Positions 4,194 to 25,405 of a DNA stretch of 64,000 nucleotides are shown here, one piece after another. How positions within the stretch are numbered: position 1 is the first letter of the stretch; each line of letters starts with the position of its first letter. The notes beneath the pieces are model-generated. The model did not search any database. It was not told the origin of the DNA and saw only the letters and a program-made list of their open reading frames with translations. The translations under genes and the position numbers were made by a program. This DNA is from a virus (Duplodnaviria > Heunggongvirae > Uroviricota > Caudoviricetes), in the IMG/VR virus record IMGVR_UViG_3300018475_001475; one strand, 5' to 3'.

Positions 4194-4216
4194 AACAGTT
4201 AAATGGAGTGATAATT

Positions 4217-4777
4217 ATGGGAAAGCAGTTTTATATTGCTGATTGGCATTATGGGCACGCAAATTGTATTGCATTTGACAATAGGCCGTTCAAGAATGTT
4301 CAAGAAATGAACGAAGAACTCATTGAGCGTTGGAATAAGGCTGTTACTGATTATGACACTGTCTATATTCTTGGTGATATGTTTTGGTGCAATTGGAAGG
4401 ATGCACTACCTGTTTTGGACCAGTTACACGGTAGAAAGATCCTAATTAAGGGCAATCACGACAGATGTAACGAAAGCCAGTTTGTAAAAAAGTTTAGTAA
4501 GATTGTGGATTATTTGGAGATTAAGGATAATGATCGCAATGTCGTTCTTTGTCATTATCCAATTCCTTGTTTTAAGAATCACTTTTACGGCTGGTTTCAT
4601 GCATATGGGCATGTACATAATTCTTTTGAAGCAAATATGATGGAACACAATAAATATCTAATGGAAGAACTTTATGGCAAGCAGTGTCAAATGTTTAATG
4701 TCGGCGCAATGATGCCATATATGGACTATACGCCTCGAACTTTGGACGAGATTTTATCGGCACAGGAGGATAAATAA
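4217..4777 (+). CDS. calcineurin-like metallophosphoesterase
   Basis: Motifs DWHYGH, GDMF, GNHD, GHVH; GGAG RBS before ATG 4217. Confidence 0.7.
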   Translation: MGKQFYIADWHYGHANCIAFDNRPFKNVQEMNEELIERWNKAVTDYDTVYILGDMFWCNWKDALPVLDQLHGRKILIKGNHDRCNESQFVKKFSKIVDYLEIKDNDRNVVLCHYPIPCFKNHFYGWFHAYGHVHNSFEANMMEHNKYLMEELYGKQCQMFNVGAMMPYMDYTPRTLDEILSAQEDK

Positions 4778-5100
4778 TGTTGAATGTATATGATAGAATA
4801 AAAGAAATTGTTTTTGACAACGGAATAAATATTATTTGTGGACAGTGGCCTGTTGAAATTAAGGATTATGAAGATTATTTCATTATTGAAACACAGGCAG
4901 AAATTGGGGATATTTCTCGTGGATGGCTTGGTAATGTTAAGTTTATATTGACGGGTAATAGTTTTGATGAAACTTCTTGTATGTCAGAAAAAAGCGTTAG
5001 CAAAAAGGTTGAGTACAAAGATGTATTATGCGTTCGTTGTACTTTTGATTTGATATCCGATTGTGTAGTATCGTGGCAATATACTTTTAATAAATATTGA
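4777..5100 (+). CDS. hypothetical protein
   Basis: 107-aa ORF, AGGAGG RBS, start overlaps previous stop (ATAATG). Confidence 0.45.
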   Translation: MLNVYDRIKEIVFDNGINIICGQWPVEIKDYEDYFIIETQAEIGDISRGWLGNVKFILTGNSFDETSCMSEKSVSKKVEYKDVLCVRCTFDLISDCVVSWQYTFNKY

Positions 5101-5146
5101 CTAAAATTCACAAATGGCCAGGAGAAATCTTGGATATTTTGCCAAC

Positions 5147-5175
5147 TTGATTTTTGGAAAATATGTGGTATTATA
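5147..5175 (+). promoter_or_regulatory. promoter-like TTGATT-N16/17-TATTAT followed by leader variant ACAGTACAAAATGAATT
   Basis: Hexamers read at 5147-5152 and 5169-5174. Confidence 0.4.
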
Positions 5176-5195
5176 ACAGTACAAAATGAATTGAG

Positions 5196-5669
5196 GTGAT
5201 TGATGTGGGTACCAATTTCTATATGATTACTAAGAATAAAAAAATGGCAGAAAAATATGCACCATATTCTTATGAGCTGACAGACAGACCATATTTTGGT
5301 TATGAAATTCACGTAGCTAAGACTTCATGTGGTTGGCTTCCTCTTTTTCAAGGGCACAGGGATGGCATCAATTCTGTGCGTGAATATAAGACGGCGTACA
5401 AAACGGGCGAATTTGAAATCGTAGATGAATATGGCAACATTTATACATGGGAAGAATTTGATAAACGGGTGTTGCAGTTTAACGGCGGTATTCGAGGAGT
5501 TGCACCTATAATTACAATAGAAGTAGATAAAAATTCTAGATGGTATGATCCAAGAATGCCAGATTGCACTCCAGTAAGTCATTTTGAATATAAATATGGT
5601 TATTATTCTGCAAACGATTACTTTACAGACGAAGATGGATATGAATTTGACAGAAGGGAATTTTCATAA
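5196..5669 (+). CDS. hypothetical protein (GTG start; alternative starts 5205/5223)
   Basis: 157-aa ORF after GAGGTG. Confidence 0.45.
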   Translation: MIDVGTNFYMITKNKKMAEKYAPYSYELTDRPYFGYEIHVAKTSCGWLPLFQGHRDGINSVREYKTAYKTGEFEIVDEYGNIYTWEEFDKRVLQFNGGIRGVAPIITIEVDKNSRWYDPRMPDCTPVSHFEYKYGYYSANDYFTDEDGYEFDRREFS

Positions 5670-6781
5670 TGTACAAGCTTGAATTAAGAGACTTTATTCT
5701 GTCTCACGATAATTGGGAAGAACTTTTAACTGCAGAACCATATTATCTTAAGATTTCTCGTGATGACGGGTATATCATGTTTAAATATAATCAGGTGTTT
5801 TCTGATTTTAATATTCCTCTAGTTCGTGAATCACGAGGAATTATTTTCAGAGAAAGCGATTGGAAGTGTGTGTCTTATCCGTTTCGAAAATTCGGAAATT
5901 ATGGTGAGTCTTATTGCCCCGAAATCAACTGGGAAACTGCATCTGTTCAAGAAAAAGTCGATGGGTCATTAATTAAATTTTGGTATGATAACGGATGGCA
6001 TATTTCCACTAACGGCACAATTGATGCGTTTAAGGCTAATCTAAACGATGTTAAGTATGAAAACTTTGGACAACTTGTTGCTACTGCAATTCATAAAGTA
6101 TTTGAAGATGAGCACGATTTTTTCAACATGCTTGACCCAAAATGTACATATATGTTTGAACTAGTTTCTCCATACAACCGCATAGTTATCCCGTATGAGG
6201 AAGTTAAGCTATATTTCTTAGGAATTAGAGATATGAACGATGGAGAGGAATGGAATCCAGAAGAGTCTGACCTGTCTATGTTTTTCTCTATCCCTAAGCG
6301 TTATCCTCTACATTCTCTGGAAGGTGTACAAAAAGCAGCAAATGCGCTTTCTTGGGACGAGGAGGGTTATGTAGTTTGCGATGCAGATTTTAATAGAGTT
6401 AAAATTAAAAGCCCATCTTACGTAATGGCTCATTACGTGCGTAATAACAACACTATTAATACTGAGCGGTTAGTACATATTGTTCTTGATGGAGAGCAAG
6501 AAGAATTTCTAATTTATGCTTCTGACTATGCTGATGAGCTTCGTAACGTCGAGGATATTATGCATAATATTGCAAGCAAGTCAGTTGAAAGTATGAAGAT
6601 AATATTCGGCGCATCTTATGAATTTGCTAATCGTGGAGAATATGCACGAGAGGTAATGAAATATCCTGCATATATGAAAGACTTCCTATTCCGTTGTTTT
6701 GATGATAAGATTTTCTGGGATTATGCAAAGAGTTGGAGTATAGATAGATGGGTTAAAGCTATTAATGAATTTAAGGGATAA
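5669..6781 (+). CDS. RNA ligase, T4 Rnl1-like nucleotidyltransferase
   Basis: KxDG adenylation motif EKVDGS with Lys at about residue 96 (T4 Rnl1 K99); length 370 aa similar to Rnl1. Confidence 0.65.
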   Translation: MYKLELRDFILSHDNWEELLTAEPYYLKISRDDGYIMFKYNQVFSDFNIPLVRESRGIIFRESDWKCVSYPFRKFGNYGESYCPEINWETASVQEKVDGSLIKFWYDNGWHISTNGTIDAFKANLNDVKYENFGQLVATAIHKVFEDEHDFFNMLDPKCTYMFELVSPYNRIVIPYEEVKLYFLGIRDMNDGEEWNPEESDLSMFFSIPKRYPLHSLEGVQKAANALSWDEEGYVVCDADFNRVKIKSPSYVMAHYVRNNNTINTERLVHIVLDGEQEEFLIYASDYADELRNVEDIMHNIASKSVESMKIIFGASYEFANRGEYAREVMKYPAYMKDFLFRCFDDKIFWDYAKSWSIDRWVKAINEFKG

Positions 6782-6788
6782 AAAGAAA

Positions 6789-7064
6789 ATGAAACATAAT
6801 GTTGTTAAATCTATGATTGGAGGAATTATTACTATGATTATAGCAATTTTGATAATTATTTGCGCACCCGCTTTTTATTATTTTGGCGGCTGGATTACAG
6901 GCCATCTGCTTAGCTGGTTTATCGGTGACATTGTTGTAGATGGTATGAACTATCTGTTTAATACTACAAGATTTACAGTTGATATGTTGCCTACTATTTG
7001 TGGTACTCTTGGTGTAATTGGGTCTTTCTTTAAGAGTACAACTACGACAAGTTCTAAGAAGTAA
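6789..7064 (+). CDS. small membrane protein (2 predicted TM helices)
   Basis: Hydrophobic stretches IGGIITMIIAILIIICAPAFYYFGGWI and LPTICGTLGVIGSFF. Confidence 0.4.
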   Translation: MKHNVVKSMIGGIITMIIAILIIICAPAFYYFGGWITGHLLSWFIGDIVVDGMNYLFNTTRFTVDMLPTICGTLGVIGSFFKSTTTTSSKK

Positions 7065-7073
7065 GGTGATAAG

Positions 7074-7976
7074 ATGTATATCCCGAAGTTTATAATGATG
7101 GTAGGTTTGGTTGCGAGCGGCAAGTCTCATATGGCTCAAAAACTCGCTATCGAACACAATGCTACAATTTTTAGTTCGGATGAACTTCGAGAAGAAATGT
7201 TCAATAATGTCAACAACCAAGATCATAACCAAGAACTATTTGTAGAACTTCATAGGCGCATCAAGGACTGTCTTCGTAGTGGTAAAAGTGCCATTATGGA
7301 TTCTACAAACATTAACTACAAGCGTCGTATGGCATTCCTAGCTGAGCTTAAGAGCATTCCTTGTGAAAAGATTTGTGTGTTAATGGGAACTCCATATGAA
7401 GAATGTTTGAAGCGTAATGCTGAGCGTGAACGCAAAGTTCCAGAACATGTAATTTTAAGAATGTATAGCAATTTTAACATTCCTTATTGGTATGAAGGTT
7501 GGGACGACATTAAAGTTGAATATGGTGTGTTTAAAGGTTATTATGGCAAACTAGCAAGTTGGTATAACAATTATAAAGATTATAATCAATACAATTCTCA
7601 CCATACATTAACACTTGGAGAACATTGTTATAGGGCTGCATTAGAGTTAATTGGTAGCAATTCTGTCACGTTAGTACGTGCAGCATGGATGCATGATAAT
7701 GCGAAGCCAGAAACGGCAACATTTATCAACTCCAGGGGTGAGGTAACTACCGAATGTCATTATTACAACCACCAATATGTTTCTGGATACAAGGCACTCC
7801 TATTTGATTATAGCAATCTATTGGATGTTGCGATTATTGTAATGTGGCATATGCAACCTTATTTCTGGGAGAAAGATAATAATGAAAAGTTGCATAGTAA
7901 GTATCGTAAGTTATGGGGAGATAATTTGTATCAAGATATTATGCAACTCCATGCGGCGGATAAATTGTGGCATTGA
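7074..7976 (+). CDS. polynucleotide kinase-like P-loop kinase fused to HD-domain phosphohydrolase
   Basis: Walker A GLVASGKSH at N-terminus; C-terminal H...HD...H...H...D (SHHTLTLGEH, WMHDNAKP, HYYNHQ, MWHMQ, LHAADK). Confidence 0.6.
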   Translation: MYIPKFIMMVGLVASGKSHMAQKLAIEHNATIFSSDELREEMFNNVNNQDHNQELFVELHRRIKDCLRSGKSAIMDSTNINYKRRMAFLAELKSIPCEKICVLMGTPYEECLKRNAERERKVPEHVILRMYSNFNIPYWYEGWDDIKVEYGVFKGYYGKLASWYNNYKDYNQYNSHHTLTLGEHCYRAALELIGSNSVTLVRAAWMHDNAKPETATFINSRGEVTTECHYYNHQYVSGYKALLFDYSNLLDVAIIVMWHMQPYFWEKDNNEKLHSKYRKLWGDNLYQDIMQLHAADKLWH

Positions 7977-7996
7977 AAAAAAAATTAAAATACCTC

Positions 7997-8024
7997 TTGA
8001 CAAATTAAAAATTTGTGATATAAT
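7997..8024 (+). promoter_or_regulatory. sigma-A-type promoter TTGACA-N16-TATAAT followed by ACAATACAAAATTAAT (8043-8058) and AAGGAG
   Basis: Hexamers at 7997-8002 and 8019-8024. Confidence 0.55.
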
Positions 8025-8075
8025 ACACTCACAACAAGACAAACAATACAAAATTAATTAAGGAGATGCAACAAA

Positions 8076-8588
8076 ATGAAAACGCTAATTGTAGTAGACA
8101 TGCAAAATGATTTTATTGATGCCGCACTTGGCACACCTGAGGCGCAGGCAATAGTACCTAACGTTAAAAAGAAGATTGCAGAATATGACGCTCGTGAAGA
8201 CGCAATTGTTTTTACACGAGACACCCATTTTGAAGATTATCTTGAAACGAATGAAGGCAAGAACCTTCCTGTTAAGCATTGTATTATGGGAACTCATGGT
8301 TGGCAGATTGCAGATGACCTAGAAGTACCTTGTGCTAGATATCTAAATAAGCCTACTTTTGGTTGGCTTGGTTGGAAGTCATTTGATTTTGAAGACGATG
8401 ATGAAATTGAACTAGTTGGTCTTTGTACTGATATCTGCGTGGTGTCTAATGCACTAATTCTAAAGGCAATGTTCCCTGAAGTTAAGATTACAGTGGACGC
8501 AAGTTGCTGTGCAGGCGTTACTCCTGAAAGTCATAAGGCGGCACTGCAGACTATGAAGATGTGCCAGATTAATGTTATTGGAGAGTAA
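8076..8588 (+). CDS. pncA: nicotinamidase/isochorismatase-family cysteine hydrolase (PncA-like)
   Basis: VVDMQNDF N-terminal motif, conserved Lys, catalytic-Cys motif GLCTDICV. Confidence 0.7.
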   Translation: MKTLIVVDMQNDFIDAALGTPEAQAIVPNVKKKIAEYDAREDAIVFTRDTHFEDYLETNEGKNLPVKHCIMGTHGWQIADDLEVPCARYLNKPTFGWLGWKSFDFEDDDEIELVGLCTDICVVSNALILKAMFPEVKITVDASCCAGVTPESHKAALQTMKMCQINVIGE

Positions 8589-8591
8589 ATT

Positions 8592-9398
8592 ATGATTAAG
8601 TTAGATGGTAAAATAGTGCACCAAGAGCATTTTCCAGACAATTCGCTGAGAATTGAACCAATCAATGACAATAGTTTCGATCTATCTTTTATGGGAATGA
8701 CATCAATTCCTAAAAGAATTACTTGGCACTATGAAAGCGATGCTGAATTGTTCACTGTAATTTGTCTAAGAAAGCATTTTGCAAATAAGGAAATGATTTT
8801 GGAAATGCCTTATTGTCCGCACGCTCGCATGGATCGAGTAAAGAACAACAATGAATTCTTTACACTAAAGCATTTTGCAGACGTCATTAATAGTCTTGAC
8901 TTCTCTGAGGTAAAAATTTATGATCCTCACAGCAATGTATGTACTGCGCTAATTAATAATGTAAAAGTAATACCTACATATAATGAGGTTCAAAAAGCTC
9001 TTAAGACAATTGGCTCAACCAATTTAGTTGCATTTTATCCTGATGAAGGGGCCATGAAGCGTGGCACTAGCTATTTGACTGGAGCATATGCGTTTGGTAT
9101 TAAAAATCGTGATTGGCAGACCGGTAAGATTTTAGGACTAGAGCTAATAAATAAGGAAGTTGTAAATGCGAGAGATGTTTTGATTATTGATGATATCTGT
9201 TCTCGTGGAGGTACATTCCTACATTCTGCTAAGGCACTCAAAGAAGCCGGTGCCAGAAAAATTTACCTGTACGTAACTCACTGCGAAAATACAATCCTGG
9301 ATGGTGAGCTACTTACCAGCGGCCTAATTGAAAAGGTATACACAACAAATAGTATTTTTACCAAAGGACATGAAATGATTGAGGTATTCGAACTATGA
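8592..9398 (+). CDS. prs: ribose-phosphate pyrophosphokinase (PRPP synthetase)-like
   Basis: DPHS motif and PRPP-binding loop VLIIDDICSRGGT. Confidence 0.75.
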   Translation: MIKLDGKIVHQEHFPDNSLRIEPINDNSFDLSFMGMTSIPKRITWHYESDAELFTVICLRKHFANKEMILEMPYCPHARMDRVKNNNEFFTLKHFADVINSLDFSEVKIYDPHSNVCTALINNVKVIPTYNEVQKALKTIGSTNLVAFYPDEGAMKRGTSYLTGAYAFGIKNRDWQTGKILGLELINKEVVNARDVLIIDDICSRGGTFLHSAKALKEAGARKIYLYVTHCENTILDGELLTSGLIEKVYTTNSIFTKGHEMIEVFEL

Positions 9399-10879
9399 CA
9401 ATTAATATTATGATGATGCTTTTTTCGGATACATATAAGCACACTCATCCTCGTATGTATCCTCGTAAAGAACCATTTAAAATGAAGAAGCTAGTTTCTT
9501 ATTTAACAGCACGTAAGAATATGTCCCCTGCATTTCCTACAATGGTATTTGTTGGTATGCAGCCATTTCTAATGAATTATCTTATTGATGGTTTCAACAA
9601 TCAATTCTTTGATCGGCCTTTGTGTGATGTAGAAGCAGAATATAAGCATTACATGGACATCCAGGTTGGTGTTGCTAATGTTGAGTGGGATGAAATTGCA
9701 GCACTACACGAACTTGGCTATTTGCCTCTTGAGATTCGTGCTTTACCTGAGGGCTCTGTGGTAAACATGGGTATTCCTGTGGTTGAAATGACTAATACTC
9801 ATCCCGATTTCGCATGGGTTGTTCAGTGGGTTGAATGTATTTTGCAGGCTGAACTGTGGGCTCCCTGTGCATACGCAACTATCGGCAAGGCGTATCATGA
9901 GCTAGCTGATAAGTACTATAAGGATACCACAGATGGCGCTGACCCCTTCATGGCCATGGCAGACTTCGGTATGCGTGGCATGTCTTGTATCGAGGATTCT
10001 ATTCGAGCATCTGCATCGTGGCTGCTAAGTTTCAACAAAACTTCCACTATTCCCGCTCTGCCGTATATTGATAAATATTATCATGCTGATTGTGCAAAAA
10101 ATGGTATTGGACGTGGCGCTGTCTCTACGGAACATTCTGTCATGGGTGCCAACTTCGCTATCGATGGCGATGAGATCACTTTCGTCAAGAGACTACTAAC
10201 CGAACTCTATCCTAATACATCTTTCTCTATGGTATCCGATACATACGACTACTGGAATATGGTCAACAATATTATTCCTGCTTGTAAGGATGAAATCATG
10301 GCACATAATGGTAAACTGTTAATTAGACCCGACTCTGGTGATATGCTCACTATTTCTATTCGTACCATTGAGAAGCTGTGGGAAGTATTTGGAGGCAGTA
10401 TTAATGCTAAAGGCTATAAGGAACTTGATCCTCATATTGGCCTGATTTATGGTGACGGTTGTACATTGAACCGTGTAGCTGATATTTATCGAACTCTTAA
10501 GGAACGTGGCTTTGCAGCGAATAATGTCGTGTTTGGCGTTGGAGCCTTCTGTTTCCATGCCATGTTTGATGTTGGCGGCAAAATGACCGTTATTACACGT
10601 GATACTTTTGGTATGGCGATGAAGGCTACATACGGTGAATTTGGTGACAAGAAGTTGTTTATCTATAAGGATCCAAAGACCGACGAAGGTAATCTAAAGA
10701 AAAGTCATAAGGGATGTTGTATGGTTAGAATGGACAACAAAAACGGTAGATATTTGTGTATGGACAAATTCGAAGGTTGGGTTCCTGATCATATGACAGC
10801 CCTGGAGACGGTCTTTAAGGATGGTAAGATGATTAAGAGCTATGACTTTATGGACATTCGGAGGAGAATGTATGGTTAA
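9395..10879 (+). CDS. nadV: nicotinamide phosphoribosyltransferase (NadV/NAMPT family)
   Basis: Colinear matches to NAMPT blocks: IRPDSG, KGYK, GDG, VFGVGA, KDPKTDEGNLKKSHKG, VFKDGKMIKSYDFMDIRRR. Confidence 0.85.
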   Translation: MTINIMMMLFSDTYKHTHPRMYPRKEPFKMKKLVSYLTARKNMSPAFPTMVFVGMQPFLMNYLIDGFNNQFFDRPLCDVEAEYKHYMDIQVGVANVEWDEIAALHELGYLPLEIRALPEGSVVNMGIPVVEMTNTHPDFAWVVQWVECILQAELWAPCAYATIGKAYHELADKYYKDTTDGADPFMAMADFGMRGMSCIEDSIRASASWLLSFNKTSTIPALPYIDKYYHADCAKNGIGRGAVSTEHSVMGANFAIDGDEITFVKRLLTELYPNTSFSMVSDTYDYWNMVNNIIPACKDEIMAHNGKLLIRPDSGDMLTISIRTIEKLWEVFGGSINAKGYKELDPHIGLIYGDGCTLNRVADIYRTLKERGFAANNVVFGVGAFCFHAMFDVGGKMTVITRDTFGMAMKATYGEFGDKKLFIYKDPKTDEGNLKKSHKGCCMVRMDNKNGRYLCMDKFEGWVPDHMTALETVFKDGKMIKSYDFMDIRRRMYG

Positions 10880-11333
10880 GATTATTGACGGCAATGTATT
10901 TGACTCGACAGCAAATATCATTTGCCACCAGTGCAATTGCCAAGGTGTTATGGGCTCTGGAGTTGCCGCAGAAGTTAAGAAGAGATACCCGCATGTCTTT
11001 CAGAAGTATAGACAAGATTATCTTGATGGCAAACTAGAACTTGGATATGTATGCTTCGCAACAGCAAAACAAGATCAGGTAATTGCTAATATGTGCGGAC
11101 AGGATCTGTTTGGCTACAACGGTTCTATGTATACAAATTATGACAAGCTCCAGGATTGTCTTAATAGGGTCAAGGAGTACGCAATGTTTGATTATGATGT
11201 AAAACCTGTTATTGCACTACCGTACATGATGTCGTGCTGCAGAGGCGGAGGCGACTGGAATGTGGTATACAAGATGATCGAAGATACATTCGAGGATTTT
11301 GACGTTGAAATTTGGAGGTTTGACAATGGATAA
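10872..11333 (+). CDS. macrodomain protein (TARG1/OARD1-like ADP-ribose binding/hydrolase fold)
   Basis: GNVFD...ANIICHQCNCQGVMGSGVAAEV and C-terminal SCCRGGGDW parallel the TARG1-like gene at 13420; GGAGG RBS; overlaps nadV stop. Confidence 0.6.
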   Translation: MVKIIDGNVFDSTANIICHQCNCQGVMGSGVAAEVKKRYPHVFQKYRQDYLDGKLELGYVCFATAKQDQVIANMCGQDLFGYNGSMYTNYDKLQDCLNRVKEYAMFDYDVKPVIALPYMMSCCRGGGDWNVVYKMIEDTFEDFDVEIWRFDNG

Positions 11334-12075
11334 TTTTGATGCAATTAAAGTAAAAAACGATATTATTAAATGGATTTCAGATTGGTTCTCTATTAATGGT
11401 CCAGACTGTAATGTGGTATGTGGAATCAGTGGCGGAAAGGATAGTTCTGTTGTAGCGGCGTTATGTGTAGAGGCGCTTGGCAAAGATAGAGTAATCGGAG
11501 TTCTGATGCCGCAGAACACTCAGTCTGACATTGATGATAGCTATGCAGTAGTTAAACACTTAGGCATTAAGCATAAAGTAATTAATATTGGACCAGTTGT
11601 TGATATGATGCTACTTCAATTGTCTATGTTTGGCGAAATGGAAATCTCCGAACAGACAAAGATTAACCTACCTCCTAGAATCCGTATGACAACACTCTAT
11701 GCAGTGTCTCAGAGTGTGAACGGCAGAGTCGCCAATACTTGCAACCTGTCCGAAGATTATATTGGTTACAGCACTCGTTGGGGAGATAGTGTTGGAGATT
11801 TCGCACCTTTGGCAAATCTAACAAGCGAAGAAGTTGTTGCAATTGGAGACGCTTGTGGATTACCTTATGAACTCACTCACAAAACTCCTTCTGATGGTCT
11901 GTGCGGGAAAACCGATGAAGACAACTTCGGTTTTACATATGAAGCACTAAATAAGTATATTCGCACTGGGATTTGCGAAGATGAAGAGGTAAAGGCAAAG
12001 ATTGATGCTATGCATGAAAAGAACATATTCAAGTTGATGCCAATTCCGACCTTTAGCTACGAGGTGCATAAATGA
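11326..12075 (+). CDS. nadE: NH3-dependent NAD+ synthetase
   Basis: PP-loop GISGGKDSS; length and layout of NadE; GGAGG RBS. Confidence 0.85.
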   Translation: MDNFDAIKVKNDIIKWISDWFSINGPDCNVVCGISGGKDSSVVAALCVEALGKDRVIGVLMPQNTQSDIDDSYAVVKHLGIKHKVINIGPVVDMMLLQLSMFGEMEISEQTKINLPPRIRMTTLYAVSQSVNGRVANTCNLSEDYIGYSTRWGDSVGDFAPLANLTSEEVVAIGDACGLPYELTHKTPSDGLCGKTDEDNFGFTYEALNKYIRTGICEDEEVKAKIDAMHEKNIFKLMPIPTFSYEVHK

Positions 12076-12356
12076 CAACTAAAAGCTTTATCATTAAAAC
12101 CGTAACGAAAATTATCATATACGCGATCATCTCAACAATTGCACTAAGTATTCTAGAAAGTCCCATTATCACCAATGAAATTGCTATGGGCCAGATGGAA
12201 AACAGCAATGAGCTATATATGTTAATGGAAGCTTATAACAGGCTTCGCCACTTTATTTCAATCATTTATGGTTGTATCACCGCACTATTTGCAGGAACAA
12301 TCATTGGTGATACATACAAATTTCTTAAAACAAAAATCAACAAAGGAGAAAATTAA
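12072..12356 (+). CDS. small membrane protein
   Basis: Two hydrophobic helices; GAGGTG RBS; start overlaps nadE stop. Confidence 0.45.
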   Translation: MTTKSFIIKTVTKIIIYAIISTIALSILESPIITNEIAMGQMENSNELYMLMEAYNRLRHFISIIYGCITALFAGTIIGDTYKFLKTKINKGEN

Positions 12357-12358
12357 TT

Positions 12359-13300
12359 ATGAAGAAGATTATCGCACTCGTACTAATGCTTGCTCTGACC
12401 TGCTGCCTGTTTACCGGCTGTCGCAGACCTTATGACAAGCCCGAATTCGTCACCATTGAAGCATCTCAGACCGCATTCCTAGTGCCTCTAGTTGGTGATA
12501 GCTCCAATCAGTCTGCATTTGAATCCGAAGAAATGCTATTAGAAGCAAAAGTCGCCACCAAGGAAATCCAGATCCCTCACCGCTGGGTACAGACTGGTCG
12601 TCGCCACTGGATGGGCCATTGGCGTGCAAGCGCAACTCTAATTGTTGTTGAGCGTAAGCCCGTATCTCGTTCCTGGGAATCCGGTAGTTCTTCCGCCGAT
12701 TCCGCCAACCGCGCAATCTTTGGCGGCAGCTCTGACAATATTGGCATCTATGTTGGTATGAACTGCACCGCTATGATCGAGGAAAAGGACGCCGCAAAGT
12801 TCCTATATCGTTATAACAACACTCCCCTGGAAACTATCATTGACACCGACATTAAGAAACTGGTTGAAGATCGCTTTAATGTAGAGACTGCTAAGTATAC
12901 TTCTACTGAGCTGGGTGCTAAGAAGGGCGAGATTATGGAGGCCGTAAAGGCTTATGTGGTTCCTTACTTCAAGGAATATGGCATCACCATTACTGTTCTG
13001 GGTCTGAAGGAAGACATTTCTTATGAGAATCCTGAGATTCAAAAGGCCATTGATGCTAAGTTTGCATCTGAACAGGAACTAGTGATTCAGCAGAATAAGA
13101 ACGAAGCAAGCATTGCTAAGGCAGAAGCTGAAGCAAAGTCTATGATTATGCTTGCTCAAGCGCAGGCTGAGGCGAACGAACTGCTAGCAAATTCTATCAC
13201 CGATAAAATTCTTGCTAAGATGTATTACGAAAAGTGGAATGGCGTGCTGCCCCAGTTCTATGGTGCAGAAGACGCTCTAATTGAGATTCCCGCAGCGTAA
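12359..13300 (+). CDS. lipoprotein with SPFH/band-7-like C-terminal coiled coil
   Basis: Signal peptide + lipobox LFTGC; Ala/Glu-rich C-terminal heptads AKAEAEAKSMIMLAQAQAEANELLA. Confidence 0.5.
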   Translation: MKKIIALVLMLALTCCLFTGCRRPYDKPEFVTIEASQTAFLVPLVGDSSNQSAFESEEMLLEAKVATKEIQIPHRWVQTGRRHWMGHWRASATLIVVERKPVSRSWESGSSSADSANRAIFGGSSDNIGIYVGMNCTAMIEEKDAAKFLYRYNNTPLETIIDTDIKKLVEDRFNVETAKYTSTELGAKKGEIMEAVKAYVVPYFKEYGITITVLGLKEDISYENPEIQKAIDAKFASEQELVIQQNKNEASIAKAEAEAKSMIMLAQAQAEANELLANSITDKILAKMYYEKWNGVLPQFYGAEDALIEIPAA

Positions 13301-13310
13301 AAAAATATAC

Positions 13311-13341
13311 GGGCCACGGCAAAACTGTGGCCCGCTTTTTG
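13311..13341 (+). terminator. rho-independent terminator
   Basis: GGGCCAC-N9-GTGGCCC stem followed by GCTTTTT. Confidence 0.6.
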
Positions 13342-13355
13342 TTAATATTGCACAA

Positions 13356-13384
13356 TTGACAAATGAAGATTAGTATGATAATAT
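13356..13384 (+). promoter_or_regulatory. sigma-A-type promoter TTGACA-N17-TAATAT followed by ACGATACAAAATTAAT (13386-13401) and AAGGAAG
   Basis: Hexamers at 13356-13361 and 13379-13384. Confidence 0.55.
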
Positions 13385-13419
13385 AACGATACAAAATTAA
13401 TAAAAGGAAGAAACAACAT

Positions 13420-13845
13420 ATGACTATTACTATTGAAAAGAAGGATCTATTTACTGTGCCACAGGGCTACTATCTCGCCCATTGCGTATCGTCCGACTTT
13501 GCCCTTGGAGCTGGAATCGCAAAGGTTTTTGATGAGGTGTACAATATGCGGTCTAAGCTCTTTAAGAATTATCCAAACTATGTATACAGTGGCGGTGACG
13601 CTCTGCTGGTTGATAATGTTTTTAACCTTGTAACCAAACAGAAGTATTATCACAAACCCACTTACGAATCTCTGAGAGAGGCTCTTGAGACGATGAGAGA
13701 GCATCTAGAGCTCCTTGATGTGACGAAACTGGCAATGCCGAAGATTGCATCGGGCCTTGATCGTCTTAATTGGAATCTGGTATATGATATTATTTGCGAA
13801 ACTTTTGAAGAAACCGACATTGATATTGTGATTTGCGAACTTTAA
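13420..13845 (+). CDS. TARG1/OARD1-like macrodomain, putative ADP-ribosyl glycohydrolase
   Basis: Near-colinear with human TARG1 as I recall it: KDLF...YLAHCVSSDFALGAGIAKVF, HKPTYESL, LAMPKIASGLDRLNW, ETDIDIVICEL. Confidence 0.8.
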   Translation: MTITIEKKDLFTVPQGYYLAHCVSSDFALGAGIAKVFDEVYNMRSKLFKNYPNYVYSGGDALLVDNVFNLVTKQKYYHKPTYESLREALETMREHLELLDVTKLAMPKIASGLDRLNWNLVYDIICETFEETDIDIVICEL

Positions 13846-13860
13846 TTGGAGGCTATAACA

Positions 13861-15078
13861 ATGGAAGTACGGCCCACATATTTGATTATGACTACAGCAG
13901 CAAATAACAACAAATATTATAACATTTTTCCAGAGGGCGACAGACTTAGAGTGGAGTACGGAAGGATTGATGCAACCAAGACAACCACATATTATCCAAT
14001 TTCTAAATTTGAAACACAGGTGAAATCAAAGATCAAGAAAGGCTACGTTGACGTAACCGATTTGAAGAAAGACCTTGTGCAAGAAATCTCCACTGCAAAC
14101 CCTGAAAGTCCTTACAAAGAAATTGAGAACGCAGCAATTAAAGCAATTGTTGACAAGCTGCATGCTATGGCCCGTGAAACAATTCAGAAAAACTACACCG
14201 TTAAGGCTTCTGCGGTTACTCATGACATGGTTGATGCTGCACAGAAAATTATTGATGACCTAGCCAACAGCAGCTCAACCGTAGAAGAATTTAATGCGAA
14301 TCTACTAAAGCTGTTCACTGTAATTCCTAGAAAAATGGGCAACGTAAGAGACTATCTTTCTAACAAGGCGGAAGACTTTGCTCGCATTATTTCTAAGGAG
14401 CAGGATCTACTGGACGTTATGCGTGGCCAGATTTATGTTAAGCCCGACAACGAACCCGTTGAGGCTGTGGAGAAGAAGCAGCAGACTATTCTTGAAGAAC
14501 TTGGTCTTGTCATGGAAGAGACTACTGAAGATGATGTTGCTATGATTAAGAGTTTGATGAACGAGTCTGCTGGAAAGTTTAGAAAGGCTTGGAGAGTTAC
14601 TAATCTGAAGACCCAGGAGCGCTTTGATAAGTTTGTTCAGGAGAATGATATTAAGGACACGAGACTATTCTTCCATGGTAGTAGAAGTGAAAATTTCTGG
14701 TCAATTATCAAAATGGGTCTTGTATTAAGACCTACAAACGCCGTAATTACAGGAAAAATGTTTGGATTTGGTTCGTATTTTTCGAACAAGTGCGCAAAGA
14801 GTATTGGTTATACTTCACTGTCTGGTTCTTATTGGGCACATGGCGGAAACAACATCGCGTATATGGCATTGTTTGATGTAGCCTATGGTACTCCTTATGA
14901 TGTCTACAATTTTGACAGCAAGTATTACAACCTTGATTATAATAAGCTTCAGCAGTTTAAGCCTGGGGCTAACTGTCTGCACGCACATGCTGATAGAGGA
15001 ATGTTGAGAAACGATGAGATTGTTGTTTACAAGGAAGAGCAGATGACTATTAAGTATCTAATTGAGATTGGTAATTGA
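13861..15078 (+). CDS. PARP-like ADP-ribosyltransferase (WGR domain + helical region + H-Y-E catalytic domain)
   Basis: FFHGSRSENFWSIIKMGL...ITGKMFGFGSYFS...NDEIVVYKEEQMTIKYL matches PARP1 HGS/GxGxYFA/YNEYIVY blocks; N-terminal YGRIDA WGR-like segment; GGAGG RBS. Confidence 0.8.
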   Translation: MEVRPTYLIMTTAANNNKYYNIFPEGDRLRVEYGRIDATKTTTYYPISKFETQVKSKIKKGYVDVTDLKKDLVQEISTANPESPYKEIENAAIKAIVDKLHAMARETIQKNYTVKASAVTHDMVDAAQKIIDDLANSSSTVEEFNANLLKLFTVIPRKMGNVRDYLSNKAEDFARIISKEQDLLDVMRGQIYVKPDNEPVEAVEKKQQTILEELGLVMEETTEDDVAMIKSLMNESAGKFRKAWRVTNLKTQERFDKFVQENDIKDTRLFFHGSRSENFWSIIKMGLVLRPTNAVITGKMFGFGSYFSNKCAKSIGYTSLSGSYWAHGGNNIAYMALFDVAYGTPYDVYNFDSKYYNLDYNKLQQFKPGANCLHAHADRGMLRNDEIVVYKEEQMTIKYLIEIGN

Positions 15079-15090
15079 GGAGTGTTTTGA

Positions 15091-17046
15091 GTGAATAAAA
15101 TTGACAGAATTAAAGAACTTGTAGAACTATTAAATCATTACAGAAATGAGTATTATAATAATTCTAGGAGTGAGATCTCAGACTTTGAATACGACAAGCT
15201 ATTTGATGAGTTAACATCGCTAGAATATGAAACAGGATTTATTATGGCTGTGTCGCCTACACAGACAGTTGGCTACGAGGTTAAGTCAGAGTTAAAAAAA
15301 GTAAAGCATAATCACCCCATGCTGTCACTAGACAAAACTAAAAGCGTAGACGATGTAATTAAATTTTTAAATGGTAAAGACGGCGTTATTATGGCAAAAG
15401 CAGATGGCTTAACATGCTCGCTTAGATATGTTAATGGTCATTTAATTTCTGCAGAGACCAGAGGTAATGGCGAAGTTGGCGAAGACATTTTGCACTGTGC
15501 CAAAACTATTAAAAACCTTCCGATAGAAATCAATTGTCTAGATGAAGTTATTGTTGATGGCGAAGTAATTATTACATATGATGATTTTGAAAAAATCAAT
15601 GAGGCGTTACCAGAGGGTCAAAAGTATAAGCATCCTAGAAATCTAGCGTCTGGATCTATCAGACAGCTTGACAGCAGTATTGCCGCACAGCGCAGCATGC
15701 AGTTTATCGCGTGGAAATTAGTTAAAGGCGGTATATATGATTCGTTTTGTTTGAATATTTTTCATATGTATTATCTTGGCTTTGATGTCATTGACTATGC
15801 GCCTATATCACATCGGATTAGACCAAAAGACATTAACATCTATATTTCTTGCATTAAAGATCATGCAAAGAACGCGGGAATCCCAATCGATGGATGTGTG
15901 TTTGGCTATGATGATATAGCTTATGGTGAATCTCTTGGAGCAACCGGGCACCACCTGCGGAGTCAGCTCGCTTTCAAATTTTATGACGAACTGTATCCAA
16001 CTAAATTACAATATATTGACTGGACTGTTGGCAAGTCTTCCCAGTTAACTCCAACTGCTGTATTTGAGACAGTAGAAATTGATGGAACTGATGTGTCAAA
16101 GGCATCGCTGCATAATATTAGTATTATTAAAAATCTTGGACTTACAAATGGATGTACTGTGAATGTGTTCAAAGCAAATCAGATTATTCCACAAATTGAT
16201 TCCTGTGAAAATGACGGTAATGGGGACATTGAAATTCCTACAACATGTCCTATTTGCGGTGGTTTGACGGCCATTAAAAAAGATAACGAGTCAGAAGTGT
16301 TAGTCTGCACAAATTCTGAATGCGCTGGAAAAAAGCTTGCACAATTTACCCACTTCGTTTCCAAGAAGGGCATGGATATTAAAAACCTGTCTGAAGCAAC
16401 GCTAGAAGTACTAATCTCGCATGGTTTTATACGAAAATTCGATGATATTTATTATCTTTCCAACCACTATGGTGACCTTGTTCATCTTGACGGGTTTGGC
16501 AAAAAATCTATCGATAATCTACTAAAATCCATAGATGATTCAAAAAACGTTAAGCTTGAGAATTTCATTGCCGCATTGGGTATTACTAATATTGGATTAT
16601 CTGCGGCAAAGACTATTTCTAAGGCATGCGATGGTGACTGGAATAAATTATGGGACATGTGGAATTATGAATATGATTTTACCAAGTTGGATGACTTTGG
16701 AGAAGTAATGGCAAATAATTTTGTAAAATATTTTGACACATATATTAACGACATTTCCGCTCTTGCCGACAGAATGAATTTTATTGTTGAAGAAAATAAG
16801 CCTGCTAGTAACAGCGTATTCACAGGAAAAACAATTTGCGTTACCGGAAAGCTGAATCATTTCACCAGAGATTCTATCAACGAAAAGATTACTTCCCTTG
16901 GCGCAAAAACAGCAGGCTCTGTCTCCAAGAAAACTGATTACTTGGTAACAAATGAGACTAGTGGATCTTCTAAATATAAGAAGGCTGTTGAGCTTAATAT
17001 CCCAATTATTACAGAGGACGAGTTTATTAAAATGTTGGAGGATTAA
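15091..17046 (+). CDS. ligA: NAD+-dependent DNA ligase
   Basis: KxDG adenylation motif KADGLT, four-Cys zinc finger (CPICGG...CTNSEC), C-terminal BRCT (FTGKTICVTGKL); GTG start after GGAG. Confidence 0.9.
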   Translation: MNKIDRIKELVELLNHYRNEYYNNSRSEISDFEYDKLFDELTSLEYETGFIMAVSPTQTVGYEVKSELKKVKHNHPMLSLDKTKSVDDVIKFLNGKDGVIMAKADGLTCSLRYVNGHLISAETRGNGEVGEDILHCAKTIKNLPIEINCLDEVIVDGEVIITYDDFEKINEALPEGQKYKHPRNLASGSIRQLDSSIAAQRSMQFIAWKLVKGGIYDSFCLNIFHMYYLGFDVIDYAPISHRIRPKDINIYISCIKDHAKNAGIPIDGCVFGYDDIAYGESLGATGHHLRSQLAFKFYDELYPTKLQYIDWTVGKSSQLTPTAVFETVEIDGTDVSKASLHNISIIKNLGLTNGCTVNVFKANQIIPQIDSCENDGNGDIEIPTTCPICGGLTAIKKDNESEVLVCTNSECAGKKLAQFTHFVSKKGMDIKNLSEATLEVLISHGFIRKFDDIYYLSNHYGDLVHLDGFGKKSIDNLLKSIDDSKNVKLENFIAALGITNIGLSAAKTISKACDGDWNKLWDMWNYEYDFTKLDDFGEVMANNFVKYFDTYINDISALADRMNFIVEENKPASNSVFTGKTICVTGKLNHFTRDSINEKITSLGAKTAGSVSKKTDYLVTNETSGSSKYKKAVELNIPIITEDEFIKMLED

Positions 17047-17048
17047 TT

Positions 17049-17300
17049 ATGAATGAACTATATTTTATGGGCTTAGATGTGGCCGCAGAAACTAAAACAC
17101 TAGTTAACTTCACCACATCTACGTGTACAGAAGGTATGACGGAATCTGAACTCAAGGCATACAACCTTGGTGTCAAGAATACTCTTGCAGCACTAAAGTC
17201 CGCGCTGGAAGATGAGGCTATTGTTGTTAATATTGATGGAATGGAAATTCCAACCGAGATGAACTTTGAAGATCTGAAAGATTATTTTTGTGAGGATTAA
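17049..17300 (+). CDS. hypothetical small acidic protein
   Basis: 83 aa, GGAGG RBS, start coupled to ligA stop. Confidence 0.45.
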   Translation: MNELYFMGLDVAAETKTLVNFTTSTCTEGMTESELKAYNLGVKNTLAALKSALEDEAIVVNIDGMEIPTEMNFEDLKDYFCED

Positions 17301-17302
17301 TT

Positions 17303-17788
17303 ATGGGAAATAATAATATCGTAAATAACTACTGTAGCACATTTACCCAAATTCTGAACGACGTGGTTAAGAAGTATGAAACCAATGTAAGCGTCATTAA
17401 GCAAACCGAAGAAACACTTACCGATGTCGAACACGAAATTGAACTTGGGAAAAATCAAGATATGTATCATGGTTATTTGTTATATAAGCAAATCAAAGAC
17501 CTTCGGATGAAGCGCAGACAGGCAAAAGATGAAAATGCTCTACTACAAGACATGTACGAATATATTAAAAGTCAACAAGGGCAGGCATTTAAAAGCAAGG
17601 TTCAGTCTATTCAAGGAAATTCCGCAAAGGTATATGAAGCCCAGGCTCGTAGAACATATACGCCTCGACAACTAAACAATTTAACAATTACAGACAAAAC
17701 GTGTGAAGTGAACCGCCCATTCGAAGATCTTTTGCGAGATTTTAAAAAGGAAAAGGTGACCATGCAGGGAGGCAAGCTCCGCAAGTGA
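17303..17788 (+). CDS. hypothetical protein (coiled-coil-rich)
   Basis: 161-aa ORF with GAGGA RBS. Confidence 0.5.
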   Translation: MGNNNIVNNYCSTFTQILNDVVKKYETNVSVIKQTEETLTDVEHEIELGKNQDMYHGYLLYKQIKDLRMKRRQAKDENALLQDMYEYIKSQQGQAFKSKVQSIQGNSAKVYEAQARRTYTPRQLNNLTITDKTCEVNRPFEDLLRDFKKEKVTMQGGKLRK

Positions 17789-23202: not shown

Positions 23203-23364
23203 ATGAAAGATGTAATTATAAGATATTTACCATACGGAACAACTCAAGAAGAATTAAAACAAATAAGGCATGAATTTAAGGATGAAAACACAACTCTTAT
23301 TTTGATAATTTCAGGTCAAGATAAACTATTGGATAACTTGCAATCTCTTGTGAATATTGACTAA
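23203..23364 (+). CDS. small hypothetical protein (53 aa) upstream of integrase
   Basis: GGAG RBS; MKDVIIRYLPYGTTQEELKQIRHEF... Confidence 0.35.
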   Translation: MKDVIIRYLPYGTTQEELKQIRHEFKDENTTLILIISGQDKLLDNLQSLVNID

Positions 23365-23419
23365 TTTTGCATTTCGAGTTACAATAAGGTATATAGAAAG
23401 TAACAATGAGGTGAATGCT

Positions 23420-25405
23420 ATGAACAAGAAAAAAGTAGAAATATTAATACAACAAGAACTGATCGAGGCTGTTGGTTATTTGCGTTTATCTAAAGATGAT
23501 GGAGATGACGAAAGTACATCAATAACAAATCAAAGGGCTATTATAGCAGATTGGGCGGCACAAAATGGATTTATAATTACTGACTGGTATGTTGACGACG
23601 GATATAGCGGATACAAAATGAACAGACCAGATTTTAATAGACTTAAAAATGATTTGAATGCAGGTAAGGTTAAAGTTGTTATAGCAAAACACTTATCACG
23701 TATCGGTAGAAGAGGATCTGAAGTAAATTTATTTTTAGAAAACATGCAAGAAGATGGTAATAGAGTAATTACCATAAGTGATGGATATGATACATTTGAT
23801 GAACGTACACATGATACTGTTGGAATTAACACTTGGGTAAATGAAAAATATGTTAGAGATACAAGTAAGAATGTAAGAGCGGCAATAGAAAGGATGCAAA
23901 AAGAAGGAAGATTTATTTGTCAAGTACCGTATGGATATGAATTAGATCCGTTTATTAAAGGAAAATATTATATAGATAAAACCTGCGCGATTCATGTACA
24001 AGAAATATTTGATATGTATTTAAACGGTTACGGAAGTAAAGCAATAGCAAAAATATTAACAGAACGTAAAATACCTACTTATTGGCAAAATGTTAAGACA
24101 AGGATGGAAAGACGTGGACAAATTTATCGTGGAAGAGATTTTGAAGGAATATGGACACCAAATACGATACTGAAAATACTAAGAAACGATTTTTATATCG
24201 GTGTATTAACACTTGGTAAAAGTAAAAGAAGAACAATCAATGGGAAAAAAGTTATGCAAAAAGATGAAGACTTAATAAGATTTGAAGATGCTCATGAACC
24301 ATTAATCGACAAACAAACATTTAAACTTGCGCAAGAAATTATGGCGGAAAGAACACATTCTAATTACAGAAGTTCAGAAAAGGGACCAACCATCTTCTCT
24401 GGAAAATTATACTGTGCTGACTGTGGAACCAGATTGACTCCAAGCACAAGTGCTAAAACACAAAGATATGTATGTCGTAAATATCACCTAGCAGGAACCG
24501 ATTATTGCACTAGTCACTCAACAAACGACAGAAACCTAACGGCTGCATTAATATACTTCCTTGAACATTGTAGGGATAATTTAGCAGAAGCGATATCTGA
24601 CTTAAAAATAGAATCCAGAAATAAAATGAAAGATTACCAAAAAGATAGTTTTGCAGTTTTACAAAAAGATAAAGAAAGAATAGAAAAAGAAATTGAAGTT
24701 CTGATAGAACAAAAAATGCGTGAAACTATTGCTAATCCAACAATGAAAGAATTCATAGATAAAACTTATGCTAATATGATTAATACAAAATATTCAGAAT
24801 TACAATCAGCAACTGCAAGAATTGATGAAATAGAAGAAGAGACATCTCAAAATGTAGATATGAAAAAAGAACTGACATCTGTATTAGATATATTTGACGA
24901 TATTATTTCAAGCAAAACATTAAGCCGTCGTCAAATTGAAACCATAGTTGAAAAAATTCTAGTTCATGAAGACGGTGGCATGGATATATTCCTTAAAGGA
25001 GATTTGCATGAATTGTGTACGAATTATATCCAATTTAAAAGTTCAAGCAAAGAAGCTATTGTTGAAAATATGATTAAATATATGGAAATGCACGCAGACG
25101 AACCAATCATTAAAAAGAAATGTGAAAAATATGTTAGAGCGCAAGGAGTAAGATTCGACACAAATATCTTTTCTAAACTATATCACAATATGATAGATTG
25201 TGGATACCTTGAGCCTATATCTCCCGTTAAGGGAAGTCGCAAAGGGAGCCGTGTAGTAGATGTTGACAAATTAAAACAAGCACTGAAAGATGACACCGTT
25301 ATGGCATACTCCCCAAGGTGTGAGAGAAGAAGTGTCACTATTCAATTCTTACATAAAGTATATAAATGGTATATTGGCACAAAGCCAAAATATAAAAAGT
25401 ATTAA
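23420..25405 (+). CDS. int: large serine recombinase (phage integrase)
   Basis: N-terminal resolvase domain with catalytic Ser in AVGYLRLSKDDGDDESTSITNQR; recombinase/zinc-ribbon region (CADCGTRL...YVCRKYH) and long coiled coil; GAGGTG RBS before ATG 23420. Confidence 0.85.
   Translation: MNKKKVEILIQQELIEAVGYLRLSKDDGDDESTSITNQRAIIADWAAQNGFIITDWYVDDGYSGYKMNRPDFNRLKNDLNAGKVKVVIAKHLSRIGRRGSEVNLFLENMQEDGNRVITISDGYDTFDERTHDTVGINTWVNEKYVRDTSKNVRAAIERMQKEGRFICQVPYGYELDPFIKGKYYIDKTCAIHVQEIFDMYLNGYGSKAIAKILTERKIPTYWQNVKTRMERRGQIYRGRDFEGIWTPNTILKILRNDFYIGVLTLGKSKRRTINGKKVMQKDEDLIRFEDAHEPLIDKQTFKLAQEIMAERTHSNYRSSEKGPTIFSGKLYCADCGTRLTPSTSAKTQRYVCRKYHLAGTDYCTSHSTNDRNLTAALIYFLEHCRDNLAEAISDLKIESRNKMKDYQKDSFAVLQKDKERIEKEIEVLIEQKMRETIANPTMKEFIDKTYANMINTKYSELQSATARIDEIEEETSQNVDMKKELTSVLDIFDDIISSKTLSRRQIETIVEKILVHEDGGMDIFLKGDLHELCTNYIQFKSSSKEAIVENMIKYMEMHADEPIIKKKCEKYVRAQGVRFDTNIFSKLYHNMIDCGYLEPISPVKGSRKGSRVVDVDKLKQALKDDTVMAYSPRCERRSVTIQFLHKVYKWYIGTKPKYKKY

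Follow-up and report, generated by a model that had tools for sequence, protein, structure and literature searches.

The DNA analysed here, a 64,000-nucleotide stretch of the Caudoviricetes record IMGVR_UViG_3300018475_001475 (the whole of which we call the window), carries at positions 8076-12075 a five-gene cassette for NAD+ metabolism. We read this module as a "deamidated NARP1", that is, a variant of NAD+ reconstitution pathway 1 (NARP1) in which NAD+ would be rebuilt via nicotinate and nicotinic acid adenine dinucleotide (NaAD). From sequence comparison, we give this reading a probability of roughly 0.55. The core of the module is the known NARP1 system, and the new part consists of the nicotinamidase (PncA) and NadE genes together with a switch in the base pocket of the transferase. 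The reading builds on the gene content, operon signals, family placements and residue changes that we observe, and on a perfect association between the altered pocket and PncA/NadE among relatives.

In NARP1, the phage gene pairs that look like "Prs + Nampt" are Adps and Namat: Adps pyrophosphorylates ADP-ribose (ADPR), and Namat joins the resulting ADPR-PP and nicotinamide into NAD+ (Osterman et al. 2024, bioRxiv 10.1101/2024.02.11.579819). Structures of the system have been reported (PMC12774641, PMC13586617). In the window, the corresponding genes belong to an operon-like stretch on the + strand (7.9-13.4 kb), in which one gene follows the next after 3 nt or with an overlap of 4-8 nt and every gene has its own Shine-Dalgarno sequence:

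7997-8024, + strand: predicted promoter, TTGACA and TATAAT spaced by 16 nt, with an extended -10 TG
8076-8588, + strand: PncA-like nicotinamidase, 170 aa (PF00857, 95.8 bits)
8592-9398, + strand: Adps-like enzyme of the phosphoribosyl pyrophosphate synthetase (PRPS) fold, 268 aa (TIGR01251, 87 bits, below the cut-off of 113)
9395-10879, + strand: Namat-family transferase, 494 aa (NF006629, 433 bits; PF18127; PF04095)
10872-11333, + strand: macro-domain protein, candidate Adpp, 153 aa (PF01661; phrog_335 'phosphatase', 136.6 bits)
11326-12075, + strand: NH3-dependent NadE, 249 aa (TIGR00552, 168 bits, cut-off 63.65; PF02540, 168.8 bits)
12072-12356, + strand: membrane protein, 94 aa, on the same predicted transcript as the cassette
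12359-13300, + strand: SPFH/Band_7 lipoprotein-like protein, also on that predicted transcript
13310-13334, + strand: strong intrinsic terminator, a 10-bp stem with 8 G-C pairs followed by CTTTTTGTT, ending the operon

A first-pass annotation of the window had placed four gene families here, and all four have Pfam or NCBIfam matches at the proposed + strand positions. They are not four consecutive genes, however, as the macro-domain gene forms a fifth open reading frame (ORF) between the transferase gene and nadE and overlaps each of them by 8 nt. At 9395-9398, the Adps-like gene ends on a stop codon that overlaps the transferase start codon, and an AAGGAGA ribosome-binding site lies 8 nt ahead of the ATG at 8076. 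The nadE ORF opens at TTG 11299; because a GGAGG ribosome-binding site precedes ATG 11326, the latter is the likely start. The promoter is the sole 12/12 match to the sigma-70 consensus within 5000-17500, and with the tight spacing and the terminator it bears out, as a prediction, the co-transcription on which the first-pass annotation had relied. The gene pair at 12072-13300 lies outside the conserved cassette and is kept only in the nearest relatives (L008 and L204 of the survey described below).

The second and third genes had initially been read as Prs and NadV/NAMPT, making nicotinamide mononucleotide (NMN) and then falling short of an NMN adenylyltransferase (NMNAT), but the two proteins fall in the Adps and Namat clades. 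In a neighbour-joining tree, the 8592-9398 product groups with the validated Adps of phage ICP1 and with those of Brizo, Team1 (K-like), EC106 (Felix O1-like, from the group of Bas63) and NotTheCreek (bootstrap 96/100), while the Prs enzymes of E. coli, B. subtilis, M. jannaschii and S. solfataricus fall apart from this clade. It scores 97-144 bits against phage Adps versus 27-57 bits against cellular Prs, and it is under every NCBIfam Prs cut-off. The ICP1 Adps residues R87, H121, D161, K185, D212 and D213 are all kept (6/6); F92 is replaced by Lys, and D216, which also varies in Team1 and NotTheCreek, by Ser. The 268-aa protein has the same end point as phage Adps, and the C-terminal alpha11-alpha12 module of Prs is absent. 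It appears to be an Adps homologue, with the predicted activity ADPR + ATP -> ADPR-PP + AMP. A Namat homologue lies in close vicinity for 97% of the Adps clade (Osterman et al. 2024).

The best solved relative of the transferase is SpβL1 Namat (9w5x, 335 bits, versus 183 bits for human NAMPT), an entry that we identified as the Namat of PMC12774641 through its residue numbering (D13, Y15, R40, F392, Y396). KVP40 NadV scores 158 bits at 26% identity, and in the neighbour-joining tree the transferase nests among Adps-linked Namats, outside the KVP40 clade. The Nampt-like catalytic core, scored against F189, R192, the catalytic His, R306, D308, GD and TRD, is intact (DFGMRG, TEHS, IRPDSG, YGDG, TRD). 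NCBIfam names the family 'nicotinate phosphoribosyltransferase', and the protein is not a PncB-family enzyme.

The base pocket is where the window protein departs from Namat. In SpβL1, nicotinamide is held by F189, R192, D215, A242, R306, D13' and Y15'; D215 hydrogen-bonds the base, and D215A brings an 8-fold loss of activity (PMC12774641). The equivalent residue of human NAMPT, Asp219, is a determinant of substrate specificity (PMC7096376, PMC9322656). A nicotinamide pocket with Asp215 and Ala242 is not retained in the window: the transferase reads K215-T-S217-T where SpβL1 has G-T-D-T, between gapless flanks (LLSF....TIPA), so that Ser217 stands in place of the amide-binding Asp (SpβL1 D215, human D219) and Lys215 in place of Gly213, and Ala242 (PATEHS) has become Ser (VSTEHS). 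Loss of the Asp to Ser or Ala, combined with a Lys or Arg two residues away, is what would be expected of a switch from neutral nicotinamide to anionic nicotinate. Khan et al. reportedly found in 2006 that D219S lets NAMPT take nicotinate. The original assignment as a nicotinamide rather than a nicotinate (PncB) phosphoribosyltransferase therefore stands as far as the PncB family is concerned, while the exchange of the amide-specifying Asp for Ser unsettles it with respect to the base.

We surveyed 203 loci, comprising relatives of the window, 80 profile-retrieved canonical Namat loci, 11 relatives of phage phAss-1 and reference phages. Every locus with Ser or Ala at the amide site (114/114) has PncA and/or NadE beside the transferase, and 103 have both; most of those without both are broken off by contig ends. 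By contrast, PncA or NadE accompanies none of the loci with Asp or Glu at this site (0/89), 79 of which have Adps. Across 191 proteins there is no exception to the co-variation of positions 215 and 242, and the best 120 cluster representatives from a search of 5.8 billion proteins, which gave at least 8,000 candidates, are all of the Ser type. The order PncA-Adps-transferase-(macro)-NadE is kept in essentially all 80 IMG/VR relatives and in 17 of 20 genome loci, and it recurs in a JGI contig of 165 kb with independently called genes and Pfam labels, in GenBank contig MT835544 and in the code-15 gut phage phAss-1. Adps is adjacent to the transferase in about 110 of the 114 Ser/Ala loci. Among GenBank phages, a Namat/Nampt homologue is found in 2021 records, NadE in 49 and a PncA-like gene in 10, and the rarity of the combination may be a reason why surveys of that collection missed it.

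The transferases of the phAss-1 clade are 31% identical to the window protein and do not group with the window clade in the neighbour-joining tree. They have the same pocket switch (R-T-A-T, Ser242) and the same PncA...NadE cassette. We see about even odds that the module represents an undescribed phage pathway, spread widely among gut-clostridial phages and prophages and maybe of two origins, one in the window clade and one in the phAss-1 clade. No paper linking NARP1, Namat or ADPR-PP with NadE, PncA or NaAD came up in the searchable literature, and the main text of a survey of viral NAD+/ADPr systems (PMC9503650) does not mention NadE, PncA, PRPP (phosphoribosyl pyrophosphate) or NAMPT.

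The same contrast between loci bears on a second reading, in which the module would be a canonical NARP1-AP, with Adps and Namat acting directly as in SpβL1 and Bas63, accompanied by PncA and NadE as independent helpers. The helpers would boost the two ends of the host Preiss-Handler pathway while host PncB and NadD fill the middle, and they would recover nicotinamide or NMN from phage ADP-ribosyltransferases and LigA when free ADPR is absent. This reading leaves unexplained why the Asp is lost only where PncA/NadE are present (114 versus 0/89), as well as the Gly -> Lys/Arg and Ala242 -> Ser changes, and PncB and NadD were not found in the window by Pfam scans of + strand ORFs. In addition, NARP1 has no place for PncA or NadE, and a nicotinamidase in the operon would compete with Namat for nicotinamide, so NARP1 by itself does not account for these two genes. 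On the other side are the families to which Adps, Namat and the macro protein belong; the PARP, TARG1-like macro and NAD-dependent LigA genes next door; the NADAR, SIR2-like and macro genes in the cassettes of relatives, which amount to heavy ADP-ribose traffic; and the partial activity of SpβL1 D215A, whose 8-fold loss is not total. We consider this reading possible but doubtful.

A further difference from Namat concerns the adenine clamp, for which the reference is GSX.X.X.TRD, a motif whose positions 3 and 7 are aromatic, combined with a stacking residue (R40) in the clamp loop. In the window protein, the clamp helix reads GAFCFHA, followed by a 10-residue insertion and ITRD, with aromatics at positions 3 and 5 and none at 7, and Met takes the place of SpβL1 R40. 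In the phAss-1 clade, nothing of the motif is lost (GAYTYQYVTRD). We also observe a 4-residue insertion at about residues 25-28 (YPRKEPFKMKK versus YPQ----NLNK in L007), in the N-terminal region near the clamp loop, that is absent even from the closest relatives.

The altered clamp of the window clade is one of several points in favour of a PRPP-based salvage, which comes near the view of the first-pass annotation: PRPP would be made and used to form nicotinate mononucleotide (NaMN) or NMN, a host or distal NadD or NMNAT would act next, and NadE would finish, in effect a phage copy of the Preiss-Handler pathway minus NadD. Namat still yields NMN from PRPP in vitro (NARP1 literature), the NCBIfam family name points the same way, and an NMNAT-like gene (F/GRFQxFHxGH) lies close to or upstream of the transferase in L011, L012, L084 and L094. 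Against this, the Prs-like protein belongs to the Adps clade, whose validated SpβL1 member gave no product when assayed as Prs (NARP1 literature); the adjacency of Adps and transferase in about 110/114 loci is the defining linkage of NARP1; and the clamp motif is complete in the phAss-1 clade. NMNAT-like genes are near the cassette in only about 5 of the 114 relatives (for example L011:14234-14812 and L084:16017-16667), with the motifs FRAQPFHxGH or GRFQTFHKGH, and the window has none. Pfam scans of every + strand ORF from 1 to 25.7 kb found no NMNAT, Nudix, PncB, NadD or PnuC/NadR, and no NMNAT was found by whole-window tblastn with two NMNAT-like proteins from relatives or by a six-frame scan for HxGH-type motifs, in agreement with what had been noted at first. 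PRPP-based salvage would thus leave a gap that the ADPR-PP route does not have: NARP1 makes NAD+ directly from ADPR-PP, so the missing NMNAT is no anomaly and is explained by known biology. We regard a PRPP-based salvage as unlikely.

The closest solved relative of the PncA-like protein is P. horikoshii PncA (1ilw/1im5), and although it falls below the NCBIfam equivalog cut-off for PncA (32.5 bits versus 174), 98 homologues share its catalytic triad D8/K92/C121 and its metal site D49/H51/H68 without variation. Because these sites are intact, we predict that it converts nicotinamide to nicotinate and NH3. For NadE, the closest solved relatives are the NH3-dependent enzymes 2e18 and 3fiu; the SGGxDS P-loop (SGGKDS here) is invariant in 94 homologues, and there is no glutaminase domain. 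The predicted reaction is NaAD + ATP + NH3 -> NAD+. Of these relatives, 3fiu (Francisella), which is close to the window NadE, is presumably an NMN synthetase.

The macro protein is 31% identical to gp167 of Vibrio phage Brizo (E 2e-15), whose gene sits between Adps and Namat, and its matches in the Protein Data Bank are yeast Poa1p (6lfq, E 5e-5, over the N-terminal 44 residues) and DarG macro domains. We consider it a candidate Adpp, predicted to convert ADPR-1''-phosphate to ADPR. A reading as an anti-DarT DNA de-ADP-ribosylase would agree with its NCBIfam DarG match and with the DarG-type DNA de-ADP-ribosylases that share its class, but it is less favoured, as the position inside a NARP1 operon and the Brizo/Gary-type homology speak for Adpp. 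The macro gene is present in 65 of the 114 Ser/Ala cassettes, and a small HAD-like protein is found instead in 31 others.

The HAD-like protein (~135 aa, with a DxDxT motif) is encoded between the transferase and NadE in these 31/114 cassettes (for example L016:11457-11864, L112:4784-5203 on the minus strand and L084:11451-11939). Its gene is nearly mutually exclusive with the macro gene (both in 2 loci), and 31 of 90 canonical NARP1 loci have it as well; it may encode an alternative NARP1-associated phosphatase, of which we found no description. Other relatives carry additional genes: a NADAR (DUF1768) gene, absent from the window, lies beside NadE in 37 cassettes, either between the macro gene and NadE (L015:11909-12325, L034:11913-12326) or just after NadE (L011:12804-13319, L204:12667-13119), and L011 (8488-9261), L012 and 7 other loci have a SIR2-family (sirtuin-like) gene between Adps and transferase, which puts an NAD+ consumer inside an NAD+-rebuilding cassette.

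When host NADase defences cleave NAD+, ADP-ribose and nicotinamide are left, and the proposed pathway would start from these products. In cassettes with a macro gene, the Adpp-like protein would turn ADPR-1''-phosphate from a RES-type system into ADPR. The Adps homologue, judged by its family membership, would convert ADPR to ADPR-PP, while the phage nicotinamidase would deamidate nicotinamide to nicotinate and NH3. The Namat-family transferase would then join nicotinate and ADPR-PP into NaAD, which is the new step, and the NH3-dependent NadE would complete NAD+ from NaAD, NH3 and ATP. With nicotinate as the base, the pathway would be closed, leading from the NADase products to NAD+ without a host enzyme or an NMNAT. 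PncA frees the NH3 required by the glutaminase-less NadE, and by established enzymology the stoichiometry closes. We infer all of these enzymatic activities, as well as the anti-defence role; the view taken at the outset, that the module belongs among those directed against NAD+-depleting immunity, finds support.

Several points weigh against a deamidated NARP1. The choice of nicotinate by the transferase is drawn from three pocket residues. The altered adenine clamp makes the use of ADPR-PP less certain in the window clade than in the phAss-1 clade. Among the Ser/Ala loci, L094, L095 and L110 are without PncA and/or Adps within their flanks, and L100 is without NadE within 8 kb. In L094, a short contig in which no Adps or PncA is visible, an NMNAT-like gene (624-1187) lies directly upstream of the Ser-type transferase, an arrangement that might represent the deamidated route in a PRPP/NaMN form. 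The non-acidic pocket perhaps arose only once or twice, in which case the contrast of 114 versus 89 loci overstates the number of independent events. Finally, the benefit to the phage of two added steps is not obvious; as guesses, clostridial hosts might rapidly deamidate nicotinamide, a charged base might be retained, or phage ADP-ribosyltransferases might be freed from inhibition by nicotinamide.

Immediately beyond the operon terminator, we observe a group of genes related to ADP-ribose and NAD+:

13356-13384: promoter-like site, which starts a separate predicted transcription unit (13356-17046) after the operon terminator
13420-13845: TARG1/OARD1-like macro protein (94 bits to human TARG1)
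13846-15078: PARP catalytic-domain protein, in the second transcription unit
15091-17046: NAD-dependent LigA, in the second transcription unit

The PARP and LigA genes are therefore next door, as the first-pass annotation had it, but its suggestion that the module feeds them is weak, since they belong to a separate predicted transcription unit and adjoin the cassette only in the closest relatives. A housekeeping supply of NAD+ for phage PARP, LigA and sirtuin-like enzymes, with no role against immunity, would fit the adjacency of PARP and LigA in the window and its nearest relatives. In most of the 114 loci, however, neither is present within 10 kb of the cassette; homologous Adps/Namat pairs counter SIR2-HerA, Thoeris, DSR1/2 and SEFIR experimentally (NARP1 literature); and free ADPR, which Adps uses, is made by NADases rather than by transferases or a ligase. 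We find such a purely housekeeping role very improbable. The TARG1-like macro protein and the PARP look like an ADP-ribosylation writer/eraser pair, which adjoins the cassette only in the nearest relative, L007.

From where relatives of the transferase occur, we conclude that gut Clostridia, of the Lachnospiraceae type, host the source element as a temperate phage or prophage. The relatives are found on viral contigs of 60-400 kb, in most cases from gut samples, and in genomes or metagenome-assembled genomes of Faecalimonas, Agathobacter, Roseburia and Lachnospiraceae. Two of the genomes are from isolates, Ruminococcus sp. AM36-2AA, where the gene is internal to a contig of 499 kb, and Lachnospiraceae bacterium A4, where the contig around it measures 792 kb. 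Megablast of the region against 50,697 GenBank phage records gave no match, and thus there is no close DNA relative in that phage set. The window also encodes a ribonucleotide reductase, a dUTPase, a dCMP deaminase and tail-fibre-like proteins, and the following genes lie outside the two transcription units:

4208-4777: metallophosphatase, of an RNA-repair-like set
5669-6781: Rnl1/gp63-type RNA ligase (phrog_562)
7074-7976: polynucleotide-kinase-like AAA_33 protein with a C-terminal extension, of the RNA-repair-like set
23357-25405: large serine recombinase (phrog_95 integrase, 334 bits)

The serine recombinase suggests a temperate, SPβ-like lifestyle. The RNA-repair-like set (4208-7976) is located just upstream of the operon, and at the equivalent position L013 and L204 have Thg1-like genes. 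A class-V aminotransferase/cysteine-desulfurase-like gene at 696-1787 (PF00266, 227 bits) is kept in L204. On the minus strand, the genes sampled with PHROGs from 25.7 to 64 kb look virion/tail-like, and this region contains two giant ORFs, 30289-38724 (2811 aa) and 39922-47517 (2531 aa).

Few antiviral strategies of bacteria are as common as NAD+ depletion, against which NARP1 is the principal phage countermeasure known. If the deamidated route is real, it would comprise a new enzymatic reaction, the transfer of ADP-ribosyl to nicotinate, and a fourth route of viral NAD+ reconstitution, and three pocket substitutions would have shifted the target of a NAMPT-fold enzyme from amide to carboxylate. 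The contest in gut Clostridia would then also reach the nicotinamide half of NAD+, where removal of nicotinamide by hosts or their defences might be met by phages that work from nicotinate. For annotation, metagenomic "nicotinamide phosphoribosyltransferases" could be divided into a G-T-D/E-T type and a K/R-T-S/A-T type, the latter having PncA and NadE as neighbours. Should the transferase prove to use nicotinamide, the conserved five-gene cassette would still be a new extension of NARP1.

When compared to known systems, the set differs from those described in carrying PncA and NadE, as had been recognized initially. That first comparison was limited to sets of the NARP2 type, whereas the core matches NARP1 and the macro gene matches the NARP1-AP phosphatase. 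With NARP1, the window shares adjacent PRPS-like and NAMPT-like genes in that order, membership in the Adps and Namat clades, conserved catalytic cores and no need for an NMNAT. It differs from NARP1 in the D215 -> Ser, Ala242 -> Ser and Gly213 -> Lys substitutions, in the 10-residue insertion of the clamp helix, in the nicotinamidase upstream and the NH3-dependent NadE downstream, and in the predicted product of the transferase, NaAD instead of NAD+. The described accessories of NARP1 are the macro phosphatase Adpp and the glycosidase RyDEP. In NARP1-AP, found in Vibrio phage Gary with the order Adps-Adpp-Namat, Adpp converts ADPR-1''-phosphate made by aRES to ADPR (bioRxiv 10.64898/2026.01.28.702374). 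The window likewise has a Poa1p/DarG-class macro gene within the operon, 31% identical to that of the Gary-like Brizo, but its order is Adps-transferase-macro, and the macro gene occurs in 65/114 window-type cassettes versus the 15% reported for NARP1.

The window resembles NARP2 (KVP40 NadV with the Nmnat/Nudix protein NatV) in having a phage NAMPT-family enzyme for rebuilding NAD+, but its transferase lies outside the KVP40 clade at 26% identity, no Nmnat/Nudix is found in the window and Adps is present; the NARP authors found no phage with both NARP1 and NARP2. NARP3 (a PnuC-like transporter with a NadR-like kinase/adenylyltransferase) was rejected as a different gene set that is absent from the window: the + strand Pfam scans from 1 to 25.7 kb contain neither gene, while minus-strand genes were only sampled. 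The phage closest in design is phAss-1 (OQ749652), which has the same cassette and pocket switch. It is annotated there with a nicotinamidase, a ribose-phosphate pyrophosphokinase, a nicotinamide phosphoribosyltransferase and two hypothetical proteins (OQ749652; PMC10607447), one of which is NadE, and the accompanying paper lists the nicotinamidase only and does not analyse the pathway (PMC10607447). Unlike the window, phAss-1 has RTAT rather than KTST in the transferase, a canonical clamp helix and a HAD-like protein instead of the macro protein. Finally, the window shares with Preiss-Handler salvage (PncA, PncB, NadD, NadE) the first and last enzymes and the route through nicotinate and a deamido-dinucleotide; PncB and NadD are absent, and in their place we propose Adps and a Namat-family transferase that would re-use ADP-ribose.

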